Shown here: positions 3,308 to 41,173 of the stretch, one piece after another
How positions within the stretch are numbered: position 1 is the first letter of the stretch
Layout: each line of letters begins with the position of its first letter
IMG/VR virus record: IMGVR_UViG_2541047842_000006
Source: a virus
Lineage: Duplodnaviria; Heunggongvirae; Uroviricota; Caudoviricetes
DNA length: 47,623 nucleotides
Direction: 5' to 3' (one strand)
Notes under the pieces: model-generated
What the model saw: the letters and a program-made list of their open reading frames with translations, nothing else
Told to the model about the DNA's origin: nothing
Databases searched by the model: none
Program-made: the position numbers and the translations under genes

Positions 3308-3883
3308 CTACGGCAGTGCTGGCCATTCAATATCCTGTGCAGTTGACGTATCAACACGGTTCAGCAATACCCGATACTTTTTCCATGCTTCCAGCAACGA
3401 GATTTCTTCCTCCGTTGCAATTTCCAGATCTGCAGCATCCTGAAGCGGCGCAATATGCTCACTGGCTACCTGCATCAGGTTGTTTTTTGTTTCTTCCGCC
3501 TCCCGGATCCGGAACAGTTTTTCTGCTTCCGTATCCTTCACCCAGGCTGTGCCGTTCCACTTCTGAAACTCCCCTTCCGGGGATAACCAGGTGACATTTT
3601 CCGGTAATGGGCCAAGTTCAGAAATAAATAACGCGTCGCCGGAAGCCACGTCATAGACGGTTTTACCCCGATGATCTTCAACGAGATGCCACGATGCCTC
3701 ATCACTGTTGAAAACAGCCACGAAGCCAGCCGGAATATCTGGCGGTGCAATATCGGTACTGTTTGCTGGCAGACCTGTATGAGGCGGAATATATGCGTCA
3801 CCTTCACCAATAAATTCATTAGTTCCTGCCAGCAGATTATAAATTTTTATGGTCCGTGGTTGTTCACTCATTCTGAATGCCAT
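3308..3883 (-). CDS. tail fibre assembly protein (Tfa)
   Basis: 191 aa; start overlaps stf stop by 1 nt; recalled similarity to lambda/e14 Tfa. Confidence 0.8.
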
Positions 3884-7528: not shown

Positions 7529-10930
<3,402 letters not shown>

Positions 10931-35973: not shown

Positions 35974-36189
35974 CAGAATCCTTCCGGATAATTAGCTCTC
36001 CCCTTTAAGGGACCATCCCTCTTATCCCTGCGCGCTACTTAAGTATTTTTGATTCTATTCCGGCACCGTCCAGATCTTCAAACGCGTTGAAAATAAAAAC
36101 AAAAACCCGCCGAAGCGGGTTAAGTGCGGGTGCGTTGAGGATGCCTGCCACATCAGAGGTGGCGAGGGATTTCTCCCTCGCCGGGTCTC

Positions 36190-36345
36190 TTACTCCTCAG
36201 GTTCGTAAGCTGTGAAGACAGCGACCTCCGTCTGGCCGGTTCGGATTCGTACCTCGCAGAGGTCTTTCCTCGTTACCAGTGCCGTCACTATGACGGTTAA
36301 ACAGATGACGATCAGGGCGATTAACATCGCCTTTTGCTGCTTCAT
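36190..36345 (-). CDS. hokD: Hok-family membrane toxin (HokD/RelF-like)
   Basis: 51 aa MKQQKAMLIALIVICLTVIVTALVTRKDLCEVRIRTGQTEVAVFTAYEPEE; longer overlapping frame is mok-like. Confidence 0.85.
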   Translation of the reverse strand: MKQQKAMLIALIVICLTVIVTALVTRKDLCEVRIRTGQTEVAVFTAYEPEE

Positions 36346-37019
36346 AGCCTGCTTCTCCTTGCCTTTCGGCTCGTAAGAGGCTAACCTACATGTGTCTAGC
36401 ATGAAATTGGCCTCAGATTAATGTTAAGCGTCTTGCAGGACGCGTAATGTTAACTGGGGCTTTTCTCTATCTGCCTTTGGTGTTCATGCCCGAGGCAGAT
36501 AGCCTCAAGCACCCGCAGCCATTCTACTTAACTACCGTTACCTCGCCAATATGAAATCAGTCAGAAAGGCGATCCATAAGAACAATAGCAAGACAATAAA
36601 TCGCCATTACAGCCGTAATAGCCAGCGCACATTTGAGAACCAGCACCACAACCTCCTGTATTGGACGTAGACCAGTCCTGATGAATATGAGGCTGTCTCG
36701 TCAGTGATTCAATACAACTATTGGGTATAGTTTCTCTGATTTTTTCTGTGGAAATGGGGCACAACCACTAGTCACCACCAGCACTTCTTTTAATACGCAA
36801 AGTCCGACACAAGCTAACCTTCTAGTCCGCTTTGAGCGAAAAACAGCCATAATTTAGTGCCACGTATATAATGATAGAGCTATTCAAGCTAGCAATTCAC
36901 ATGTAAAAATTCAGAGGGTAGAAGCACATAGTTATAAATGTTGGCTCCATCGACAAATTGCGGTCTCAAGTACATTTATTAATGTTGCCCCCGCATTAAC
37001 AAATCATCAAGGTGACGAC

Positions 37020-38807
37020 ATGGACGATATTAATATCAGCCTCGACGAACTTAACACTATTGATTTATCCCCCTTAATCCAGAGTAAGCTGCCAGTTACC
37101 TGCTTTGATATCACAAAGTATCTTTCTAGCCTAGGTGATGGAAGAGCGGAGATAAGACTGCTAACCCATATTTGCGGTTTTCACTTTCGTCCCGAAAATC
37201 CACAGGTACCATTTGGTCCGTGCTTTCAAAGCAGCCAAGGTAGATCTGCAATTCCGGATGACATTAACGGGTTGTCGCTGGAGGTACTTTCTCAATTTTG
37301 CCCGACGATAGAGCTACCCGAACTTCAAGCTCGTATTGCTGATACACTTTGGGTTCGTAAAATTGGTGGAATCCGTTTTCCTTTGCTGGCAGTCCGTGCT
37401 TATTATGCGTCCAGTATAGCTATTATGACATCGCAAGGGACGTGGGTTAGTGCTTTAGAACGCCTAGAGCGTGCGCTTAGGCTGTGTTGTTTTTTTCGAA
37501 AGAATACTGATTTCAGGGATGAATTTGATCAGCTTTCGGCACATCTACTAGCAGAGTATGAACGTACCAGAGAACAAGGCGATTCACCTTATCCGCTGCG
37601 ACTCCTGCAACTCGATATCGACTGTAAAGTGAGTGAGCCATCTTTTATTGCCCAGGAACTCCTGTTTCTGACAAAAAACTATCTGGCTCAAAAATTATTT
37701 TCATTTGCCGTCGATGCCTGTAAAACCGCAATCACGATTGCGAATAGGTGCTGTGACAGAGATACACAGTTTGAATTCTGGCGGCTTCTTGCCGATACAC
37801 ATCTGGAAGAGTCAAAATTCCAAGATGGCGGTATGATTTCGGCAGCCTGCATGCAGAATGCTATTGAAGCACTGGCTAATATTCCAGGAACCCGAATAGA
37901 ACGTCTTGCGCTGTATGAAGAAATGCGTGATTACCAAATCGAATCCCGTCACCAGATGTCTATCCTTCAGTCTCCCCCTCAAGATATTAGTGAGATTGTC
38001 CATCAAGCCAAGAGTCGGGTAGTCGGAAGAGATATGTTTGATATGGTTTTCAGACTTGCGATGCTGGTCTGTCGGCCAACCAGCATTGAGAGACTTAAGG
38101 CTCAAGCAATAGAACAAAAGGCCAACAGCATAGCTTGGATGTTTGGATCAACACATATTGATCATGAGGGAATGACACTTGCTCGCATACCCGCAGGATT
38201 GGGGATTGATGATGCAAATGGGGCAGTTATTTGGCCCATAATGATGACGAGAATGCGTATCGACCATGAGTTGGCAGTAGCTGGGCAAATTATTCCTGCT
38301 ACAGATGAGATCACAATGAAATATCCAATCTCGGAGGCGTTTTTTCGCGATATGTTCATCAATCATCCCTTCATCCCGTTTGGGCATGAAGAGTTTTTCA
38401 TCAAGGGTATGGTTTGCGGTTTCAATGGAGATTTTATGACGGCATGCCACGTGTTGATTCCCCAGATCGAAAATAGTCTGAGATATGTGGCTAAAATTAA
38501 AGGTGAGGAACCATCGCAGCTTCACGGGGACGGTTCGCAAGAGCGAAATGGACTCAAGGGATTACTAGATAATCCACTGATTATTGAAGCTTTCGGCGTA
38601 GACATAATTGGCAATCTTCAGGCCTTACTGGTAGATAAAATCTATGGTGATTTACGAAATCAACTAGCTCACGGATATGTGCCTGCCGGTTACTACAATC
38701 AACCTCCCTGCATTTTTGCATGGTGGCTTGTATTGCACATTCTAATGAACCCTACGGCGAGATACTGGCAAGCCACTTATGGCCAAGAGAGTGAGGCTCA
38801 GACTTAA
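37020..38807 (+). CDS. orphan 595-aa protein with C-terminal RNxxxH (HEPN-like) motif; candidate abortive-infection/defence protein
   Basis: long ORF with good RBS (AAGGTGACGACATG), opposite strand to neighbours, AT-richer than flanks; C-terminal ...GDLRNQLAHGY fits the HEPN R-x4-H signature; no Walker or other recognised motif. Confidence 0.55.
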   Translation: MDDINISLDELNTIDLSPLIQSKLPVTCFDITKYLSSLGDGRAEIRLLTHICGFHFRPENPQVPFGPCFQSSQGRSAIPDDINGLSLEVLSQFCPTIELPELQARIADTLWVRKIGGIRFPLLAVRAYYASSIAIMTSQGTWVSALERLERALRLCCFFRKNTDFRDEFDQLSAHLLAEYERTREQGDSPYPLRLLQLDIDCKVSEPSFIAQELLFLTKNYLAQKLFSFAVDACKTAITIANRCCDRDTQFEFWRLLADTHLEESKFQDGGMISAACMQNAIEALANIPGTRIERLALYEEMRDYQIESRHQMSILQSPPQDISEIVHQAKSRVVGRDMFDMVFRLAMLVCRPTSIERLKAQAIEQKANSIAWMFGSTHIDHEGMTLARIPAGLGIDDANGAVIWPIMMTRMRIDHELAVAGQIIPATDEITMKYPISEAFFRDMFINHPFIPFGHEEFFIKGMVCGFNGDFMTACHVLIPQIENSLRYVAKIKGEEPSQLHGDGSQERNGLKGLLDNPLIIEAFGVDIIGNLQALLVDKIYGDLRNQLAHGYVPAGYYNQPPCIFAWWLVLHILMNPTARYWQATYGQESEAQT

Positions 38808-39025
38808 AGTGAATAAGTTTACGAAGTTGGCACTTCCGGATGCATGTCCATATGAGTTGAGGCGATTTGGTTAATAAGGTTGAGTGCTGCTGAAATTATT
38901 CGATGTCCGCTTTTGGCACAAAGCGGACAACCACGCCAGATCTACCCTGTGCCATGAAAAATGAGAATGTCAATTCACTCCTGAACTAATGCTTTTTAAT
39001 CTAGTAACGTCTAAAATACCTAACA

Positions 39026-39427
39026 TTATCCCTGATAAAATGCCAGTATGCGCTGCATAACTTCACTCATCCGGCACTCGCGACAGATTATGTTTAGGCG
39101 ACTGTCGTAGCGACGTATTTCTCCATCAGGTAACGACCAGATAAGGTCCGGATCAACCACAGCTGTTTTCTTCACCTTTGCCCTCGAGAGTTTTTTGCGG
39201 GCGTTTTGCCAGTCCTTACGCGCCTGTTCAGACGGGAATAACCCGTAGCCGGAGTTGTATACATCGCCACTGGCTACCAGCTCTCTGGCAAGAACGCTCA
39301 TCAGATATCTAGTCGCACCTGTTTTAGCTTCCAGTTGCCGTAACGTCTCACGACCGCTCTGGCGCACGAGTTCCACCACCTGCCCTTTAATTTTTTCCCG
39401 CTCTTCTTGTGTAAAAACTTTTGCCAC
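39026..39427 (-). CDS. hypothetical protein downstream of replication initiator
   Basis: 133-aa ORF, basic/helical N-terminus; convergent with the 595-aa gene. Confidence 0.45.
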   Translation of the reverse strand: MAKVFTQEEREKIKGQVVELVRQSGRETLRQLEAKTGATRYLMSVLARELVASGDVYNSGYGLFPSEQARKDWQNARKKLSRAKVKKTAVVDPDLIWSLPDGEIRRYDSRLNIICRECRMSEVMQRILAFYQG

Positions 39428-41159: not shown

Positions 41160-41173
41160 TTGAGTTTTCTCAA
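41160..41173. promoter_or_regulatory. candidate operator palindrome TTGAGTTTTCTCAA in the divergent cro/repressor intergenic region
   Basis: perfect 5-bp inverted repeat with 4-bp spacer between the two divergent starts. Confidence 0.4.

Follow-up and report, generated by a model that had tools for sequence, protein, structure and literature searches.

A DUF7380-DUF4209 protein of the PDC-S39 family as a candidate single-protein HEPN defence on a palindrome-bounded prophage cassette

The DUF4209 domain was identified by Anantharaman et al. (2013, PMC3710099) as the HEPN domain of the C6orf70 family and predicted to be catalytically active; its bacterial versions occur as fusions to TPR repeats and in operons related to restriction-modification (R-M). 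PDC-S39 is one of 145 'guilt-by-embedding' defence candidates, which their authors call untested, and is defined by its embedding within BREX, DISARM, RM-I or Hma systems (Payne et al., 10.1101/2024.01.29.577857). Here we analyze a gene that matches both families. It lies in a 47,623-nt stretch of Caudoviricetes DNA (IMG/VR record IMGVR_UViG_2541047842_000006), denoted the window; all positions are those of this whole stretch, and the offset to the RefSeq-annotated locus L001 is 28019. The gene is an ATG-started open reading frame (ORF) on the + strand, 37020..38807, that encodes 595 aa. On balance we lean towards the interpretation that its product is a stand-alone, autoinhibited single-protein HEPN ribonuclease (RNase) of the DUF7380+DUF4209 (PDC-S39) type, which would act by abortive infection (Abi) and is carried on an autonomous prophage cassette.

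The relationship to PDC-S39 is extensive. Both PADLOC hidden Markov models of this family match the protein over nearly its full length (PDLC05012, E 8.4e-103, aa 43-581 against profile positions 54-602 of 615; PDLC05011, E 2.6e-102). The window gene, like PDC-S39, is a single gene, and its architecture is that of homologues in the P2 hotspot, which are also PDC-S39 matches; unlike the defining members, it occupies a cargo slot of a lambdoid prophage and is not embedded in another defence system. With the HEPN proteins of the C6orf70/ERMARD type it shares the RNxxxHG signature, the predicted activity and, among the bacterial versions, the fusion to TPR-like repeats (PMC3710099). The eukaryotic members, however, are described as proteins of the endoplasmic reticulum membrane with a transmembrane segment, whereas the window protein contains the bacterial DUF7380 domain and no convincing transmembrane segment by hydropathy (Kyte-Doolittle 19-residue maximum of 1.75, located inside the HEPN bundle). 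The entry '1 TM' that a table of Rousset et al. gives for the P2 DUF4209 protein is thus unsupported for the window protein.

The precedent for a prophage-encoded, phage-triggered HEPN defence is Tha, an RNxxxH HEPN RNase from a Staphylococcus aureus prophage, which has an uncharacterised N-terminus and is triggered by incoming tail proteins (PMC11087260). Tha comprises 301 aa as opposed to 595 aa, and no sequence-family relationship between the two proteins was detected. Its N-terminus is poorly predicted, in contrast to the confident helical-repeat fold of the window protein, and its autoimmunity is prevented by a cognate inhibitor, Ith, whereas no partner was found for the window gene. A single HEPN RNase domain joined to a sensor or regulatory domain that varies from protein to protein is likewise seen in ApeA, AbiD/AbiF Abi_2, AbiV, AbiJ, PD-T7-4, HEC-08, DS-11 and DS-38. 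Mutation of the Rx4-6H motif abolishes defence by such single-protein systems where tested (10.1101/2024.01.29.577857; DefensePredictor). Their partner domains are Zn-ribbons, CBS or helix-turn-helix domains, as against DUF7380 and a solenoid in the protein studied here. The HEPN/MNT toxins of type II/VII toxin-antitoxin (TA) systems also differ: the window protein is ~4 times larger, its predicted HEPN domain contains an inserted β-hairpin (aa 499-509), and no MNT nucleotidyltransferase gene is adjacent, the neighbours being hok/sok and DUF977.

Domain architecture and conserved residues

The ORF is preceded by an AGGTGA Shine-Dalgarno sequence (37010-37015, 4 nt 5' of the ATG), and its 595 codons lie far above chance: 200 shuffles of the 6 kb around it gave no stop-free run of more than 195 codons. 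The C-terminal part of the translation reads IYGDLRNQLAHGYVPAGYY and contains GDLRNQLAHGY, with R546 and H551. A first-pass annotation of the window had proposed a long, well-initiated gene carrying this motif, and both points were borne out. Its description of the gene as visibly AT-richer than its surroundings stands only in direction: the GC content is indeed lower in the ORF (44.7%) and in the cassette (43.9%) than in the flanks (48-49%; window, 49.3%), but the difference is modest, and 21.5% of equal-sized segments have the same or a higher AT content.

The same annotation had considered the protein an orphan that could be placed in no named family, a view that must be abandoned. A word-index search returned 153 homologues with the same two-domain architecture from Enterobacterales, Vibrio, Aeromonas, Shewanella, Pseudomonas and cyanobacteria. 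An exhaustive profile search yielded 7,331 clusters (50% identity) at E<=1e-3, again of this architecture, and 2,783 at E<=1e-30; the best 150 clusters measure 554-673 aa and all align end to end. Phages, prophages and plasmids are among the carriers. The window protein is an ordinary member of the Pfam DUF7380+DUF4209 and PADLOC PDC-S39 families, and the identical RefSeq protein, WP_000340970.1, is labelled 'DUF4209 domain-containing protein'. The classification is therefore already known, since both PADLOC and RefSeq label the locus, and no new family is needed. Searching PADLOC-DB v2 at E<=1 gave this candidate family and no named HEPN defence model: apart from PDC-S39, none of its defence models (ApeA, AbiD/F, AbiJ, AbiV, PD-T7-4 and others) matched. 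The NCBIfam search gave no match, and PHROGs gave matches only to families of unknown function. A literature search for DUF7380, WP_000340970 and ERMARD with HEPN yielded no paper; beyond the studies cited here, the family appeared only in PADLOC listings of two genome surveys.

Two plasmid-borne members were seen far from the enterobacteria. One resides on a haloarchaeal plasmid (Natrinema sp. J7-2, hit H70; 28% identity), and another adjoins a DNA methyltransferase gene on a Chloroflexota plasmid (Ca. Chlorohelix, hit H75), which fits the R-M association noted in the literature.

Three regions can be distinguished in the protein (Table 1). Pfam DUF4209 (PF13910) matches aa 484-573 with 34.0 bits (cut-off 22.3) and covers profile positions 2-88 of 89. 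In the AlphaFold2 model of the full-length protein (pLDDT 89.9), the C-terminal region forms an all-α, up-down helical bundle of the HEPN type. The segment R546-H551 is placed on a short helix (545-550), with the terminal helix (562-594) following it. Comparison of the predicted domain with known structures gave fold scores of 8.6 and 8.5 for the HEPN/MNT toxins 7ae2 and 5yep, 8.6 for AF0298 (2hsb), 7.7 for Csm6, 7.2 for the sacsin HEPN domain, 7.0 for AbiA, 5.7 for RnlA, 5.5 for Las1, 5.3 for LsoA and 4.6 for AbiV. These scores are similar to those published for Tha, a validated prophage HEPN defence protein (PMC11087260). Searching PDB chains by sequence, both with the protein itself and with the profile of its family, yielded no significant match; sub-threshold TPR-like matches were obtained for the middle region.

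In an alignment of 40 sequences reaching down to ~25% identity, Q482, E484, S486, R488, R546, H551 and G552 are invariant. Among 260 full-length family members, Rx4H is kept in all but one (259) and takes the form RNxxxHG in 232; QxENSxR is found in 250, the other 10 retaining ENSxR, and the spacing between ENSxR and Rx4H is constant at ~64 aa. With DUF4209 scoring above the Pfam cut-off, its equation with a HEPN domain (PMC3710099) and the invariance of R546, H551 and G552, the HEPN RNase signature suspected at first pass is upheld, and the C-terminal domain is a predicted HEPN ribonuclease domain as judged from profile and model.

No enzyme-like match was found for the N-terminal two-thirds of the protein (DUF7380 and helical repeat). 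Fold searches returned only weak matches to TPR, solenoid and designed-repeat proteins, in agreement with the earlier impression that this region carries no ATPase or other recognisable motif. We propose that DUF7380 is a sensor or regulatory module.

Proposed function and alternative explanations

According to the preferred interpretation, the protein would be made in the lysogen from its own promoter and kept inactive, the DUF7380 domain and the helical-repeat scaffold serving as sensor or autoinhibitor. A signal from the infecting phage, probably one of its proteins, would release or dimerise the single HEPN domain. Two Rx4H motifs (R546/H551), aided by E484, S486 and R488, would then form a composite, metal-independent RNase site, and cleavage of cellular and/or phage RNA would abort the infection, as with Tha, AbiD/F-type proteins, ApeA and RnlA. 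Dimerisation is suggested by the presence of a single HEPN domain together with established knowledge of HEPN RNases; along with it we infer the RNase activity, the sensing by the N-terminus, the trigger, the expression in the lysogen and the anti-phage phenotype. The interpretation draws its support from the PDC-S39 match, the invariant residues of catalytic type, the lack of a partner gene, the accessory spread, the occurrence in cargo and defence hotspots, and a ThsB-like neighbour of the copy in Enterobacter hormaechei. The single-gene organisation, already supposed at first pass, is confirmed in that no neighbouring gene is conserved across nine homologue contexts. Genes of ~160 aa downstream of the Vibrio and Aeromonas homologues were considered as partners and rejected, since the genes from the two genera show no relationship to one another or to the GNAT gene that follows the E. 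hormaechei copy.

Distant members of the family provide a comparison with earlier work. In the gpA-gpQ (old/tin) hotspot of P2-like phages, homologues with 21-24% identity match PDC-S39 with E values of 1e-67 to 1e-85, and DUF4209 proteins rank 13th (193 occurrences) and 55th (76 occurrences) among the cargos of this hotspot (Rousset et al. 2022, PMC9122126). One of them, the 'Putative HEPN' of pFR103 from the P2 hotspot of E. coli S88, was assayed under its native promoter in MG1655 against eight phages (PMC9122126). Its protein is the same as that of phage vB_EcoM-569R9 and is ~24% identical to the window protein.

Several observations weigh against a role in defence. The pFR103 system is absent from the 'validated systems' of Table S2A and appears instead in Table S2B among the 'additional tested systems' (PMC9122126); as negative evidence this is weak, given a distant homologue and a narrow panel of eight phages. 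DefensePredictor left out the PDC systems as unvalidated, and neither DUF4209 nor DUF7380 is among the DUFs that it newly implicates. All structural statements made here rest on predicted models, and a consensus scan for promoters and terminators near the gene found none. Several homologues stand alone between housekeeping genes. Location alone is not diagnostic either, since the slot and the hairpins described below also hold non-defence cargo (LysR+GNAT, NmrA+HxlR, QueH, α/β hydrolase).

An unlikely but credible alternative is that the HEPN RNase serves the mobile element itself, in addiction, competition or counter-defence, for example by cutting host or rival RNAs during establishment, and is not an abortive-infection defence. 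The negative outcome for the P2 homologue, the single test found, can be read in this way, as can the carriage of the family by phages, prophages and plasmids and the position of the gene next to the hok/sok addiction module. The same cassette, moreover, is present on Klebsiella IncFIB/FII conjugative plasmids together with umuDC, an antirestriction gene, a methyltransferase, a group II intron and IS110; the intron and insertion sequence (IS) around this site, however, suggest a stretch of junk DNA that tolerates insertion and not a working leading-region operon. An element-serving role also has to contend with the definition of PDC-S39 by embedding in BREX, DISARM, RM-I or Hma systems and with the association of the family with R-M operons (PMC3710099). 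No antitoxin-like partner fits into the 194 bp upstream or the 121 bp downstream of the gene, nor is a neighbour conserved. Another idea is that the protein is the toxin of an unrecognised TA pair, with a small RNA or micro-ORF in the cassette, or its own N-terminal part in cis, as antitoxin. We regard such a pair as improbable: there is no partner, MNT or otherwise, an Rfam search of the cassette detected no RNA, and ~400 conserved N-terminal residues far exceed the needs of an antitoxin. The idea also largely overlaps with the autoinhibited RNase that we prefer, as autoinhibited Abi proteins behave like fused TA systems.

Least probable of all, with only a very slight chance in our estimation, is a role either as a non-catalytic HEPN protein that binds nucleotides or RNA or acts in regulation, like MtlR, or as a housekeeping RNA-processing enzyme like eukaryotic Las1 or C6orf70. 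The near-absolute conservation of R, H, G and ENSxR in the 260 diverse members is typical of active HEPN RNases, which argues against the former. A housekeeping role is at odds with a gene that is accessory (152 of 5,426 complete E. coli genomes, or 2.8%, at at least 99% identity, chromosomal every time), borne on mobile elements, sometimes disrupted by IS and absent from K-12. One such disruption is found in strain FDAARGOS_1290 (NZ_CP070048.1 1197219-1202457, hit H16), where IS4 splits the gene into a 'DUF7380' and a 'DUF4209' ORF; this allele is naturally inactivated.

If the autoinhibited HEPN RNase is real, it would provide the first functional assignment for a family of >7,000 clusters (50% identity) that is found on enterobacterial prophages and plasmids, in cyanobacteria and on an archaeal plasmid, and would add a new sensor module, DUF7380 with a helical repeat, to HEPN-based immunity. 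As the family is the bacterial counterpart of eukaryotic C6orf70/ERMARD (PMC3710099), the bacterial mechanism could in that case also inform the eukaryotic one.

A cassette with palindromic ends in a variable prophage slot

The annotated setting of the gene is a Qin-type lambdoid prophage with the order ydfT, ydfU, rem, hokD, the gene itself, DUF977, replication genes, cro/cI, ydfA, dicB, ydfD, exo, xis and int. All neighbouring annotated genes between 33560 and 41173 (Q antiterminator, DUF968/ydfU, rem, hokD, DUF977, an O-like replication gene, a YdaT-family gene and Cro) are on the - strand, and the + strand is used from cI, at 41173, onwards. The gene is thus transcribed against its neighbours, as had been stated, and its reading as a moron fits what is seen: a non-phage gene between backbone genes, variably present, on the opposite strand and of slightly lower GC content. 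It starts 675 nt from the hokD coding sequence (CDS; 36190-36345), which is accompanied by sok (RF01794, 36340-36514) at 116 bits in Rfam.

Table 1. Positions of the gene, its predicted domains and motifs, and the flanking features in the window
Feature	Position	Strand	Remarks
CDS	37020..38807	+	595 aa: DUF7380 + helical-repeat linker + DUF4209/HEPN; RefSeq WP_000340970.1
DUF7380 domain, aa 4-166	37029..37517	+	Pfam PF24098, E 2e-34, 119.3 bits against a cut-off of 27
Helical-repeat (TPR-like, α-solenoid) middle, ~aa 167-456	37518..38387	+	all-helical by DSSP (predicted model)
HEPN domain, structural core ~aa 457-595; Pfam DUF4209 part aa 484-573	38388..38804	+	
Helix motif Q482-I-E484-N-S486-L-R488	38463..38483	+	conserved among homologues
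Predicted catalytic motif R546-N-Q-L-A-H551-G552 (HEPN Rx4H)	38655..38675	+	invariant in 40 homologues
Upstream non-coding part, presumed promoter region	36851..37019	+	kept with the gene in three unrelated contexts
Left boundary, degenerate palindrome GTCCGCTTT-GAGCGA-AAAACAGCC	36825..36850	.	inverted copy of the right boundary
Right boundary, perfect palindrome TGTCCGCTTT-TGGCAC-AAAGCGGACA, 10-bp stem	38903..38929	.	end of homology, inverted repeat
hokD/sok type I TA locus, left flank outside the cassette	36190..36514	-	RefSeq hokD; Rfam sok
DUF977 gene, right flank, phage backbone	39026..39427	-	common to alleles with other cargo

The most unexpected feature of the locus is that the gene forms part of a hairpin-bounded cassette of ~2.1 kb (36825-38929), in which this gene stands alone between 194 bp of upstream and 121 bp of downstream sequence; the limits define the exact fragment for cloning. 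Over positions ~36826-38928, the window is 94-97% identical at the nucleotide level to an E. hormaechei prophage and to Klebsiella IncFIB/FII conjugative plasmids, and the homology breaks at the same two points in both of these contexts (36825/36827 on the left, 38928 on the right). As a unit, the cassette moves between prophages and plasmids. The E. hormaechei copy adjoins a ThsB-like TIR gene (PADLOC E 2e-128). The Klebsiella plasmid copy is located between a group II intron and IS110, with umuDC, an antirestriction gene and a methyltransferase nearby. A more distant homologue lies between Q and the holin gene in an Enterobacter kobei prophage.

At the boundaries we found repeats of ~26 nt of the form CCGCTTT-N6-AAAGCGG, with GAGCGA as the left loop and GTGCCA as the right loop (read as reverse complement). 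These are the only two such palindromic sites in the window, for which 0.17 would be expected. Folded as single-stranded DNA (ssDNA), the right palindrome reaches -10.5 kcal/mol (z -5.3) and is unchanged across the aligned contexts. The left one is a perfect hairpin in the Klebsiella copy (-10.8 kcal/mol, z -3.6) and has decayed in the window (-3 kcal/mol, z -0.8). Since no T-run follows them, the boundary palindromes are not intrinsic terminators. In three unrelated replicons the DUF4209 cassette ends exactly at these palindromes, and in E. hormaechei they also part tandem cassettes with ThsB, DUF4209 and GNAT. The sites identified are L008:6471-6490, 7845-7864 and 9888-9907; L017:5809-5828 and 7888-7907; L009:2628-2647 and 3832-3851; and further ones in L045, L032, L028 and others. 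Scanning contigs with a loop-agnostic hairpin pattern retrieved mostly unrelated GC-rich hairpins of Alphaproteobacteria and was uninformative. It is conceivable, if doubtful, that the palindromes are the recombination sites of an undescribed cassette-exchange mechanism, which would carry accessory genes, including those for defence, from one lambdoid prophage or conjugative plasmid to another. Such a mechanism could recognise hairpins or ssDNA, in loose analogy to integron attC sites or the PATE ends of the IS200/IS605 type.

The non-coding part upstream of the gene, to which we ascribe a presumptive promoter function, contains a conserved TATAAT at 36867-36872 and a 17-nt direct repeat TTATWAATGTTGSCYCC (TTATAAATGTTGGCTCC / TTATTAATGTTGCCCCC) at 36932-36948 and 36976-36992, 44 bp apart. 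Exactly one unit of this repeat is deleted in the E. hormaechei copy. The repeat could be an operator or promoter element. A hairpin without a T-run is present 3' of the gene.

Thousands of E. coli genomes contain the hokD-DUF977 backbone, which holds at least eight alternative contents: the DUF4209 gene (145 genomes), a 310-aa 'HEPN domain-containing protein', SIR2-family proteins, QueH, an α/β hydrolase (O157/O103), DUF7167 with small ORFs, one or two hypothetical proteins, and a deletion (BL21). The BL21 allele (L011) was rejected as a pristine empty site, as its deletion, 36670-39130, also takes the 3' end of DUF977. In IMG/VR prophage contigs, the hairpin pair in this slot encloses either HAD+NUDIX (1.49 kb) or SIR2+Ham1+adenosine deaminase (3.5 kb), and hairpins at other places enclose LysR+GNAT or NmrA+HxlR. 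Allowing up to 3 mismatches, no hairpins were found in the SIR2/IS481, 495-aa, DUF7167 and α/β-hydrolase alleles; given these four alleles, hairpins are not universal in the slot. The slot is enriched in defence-type domains and not exclusive to them.

Some minor observations were made around hokD. Just 3' of it, at 36100-36181 (-), lies a sub-threshold Rfam match to the Hfq-binding small RNA isrK (25.7 bits; gathering score, 50; E 0.011). The gap between hokD and the gene contains an unannotated 67-aa ORF with a TTG start (36561-36764, -) and a Cys/Gly-rich C-terminus, at a place where RefSeq skips one locus tag (RS09320); it is probably not a gene.

Two other alleles of the slot deserve mention. 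The hairpin-bounded 310-aa protein of E. coli MJ-T (L009:2829-3761), annotated as 'HEPN domain-containing protein' and with no match in Pfam or PADLOC, is a second, unrelated HEPN-type candidate at this site. The SIR2-containing cassette (L032:7524-11032, also in L028) measures 3.5 kb, has a GC content of 37% and encodes SIR2_2 (ThsA-like, PADLOC E 9e-32), a Ham1-family NTP pyrophosphatase and an adenosine deaminase (CARF_ADA-like, E 3e-36); judged by its domain content, this trio looks like a candidate nucleotide-targeting defence system.

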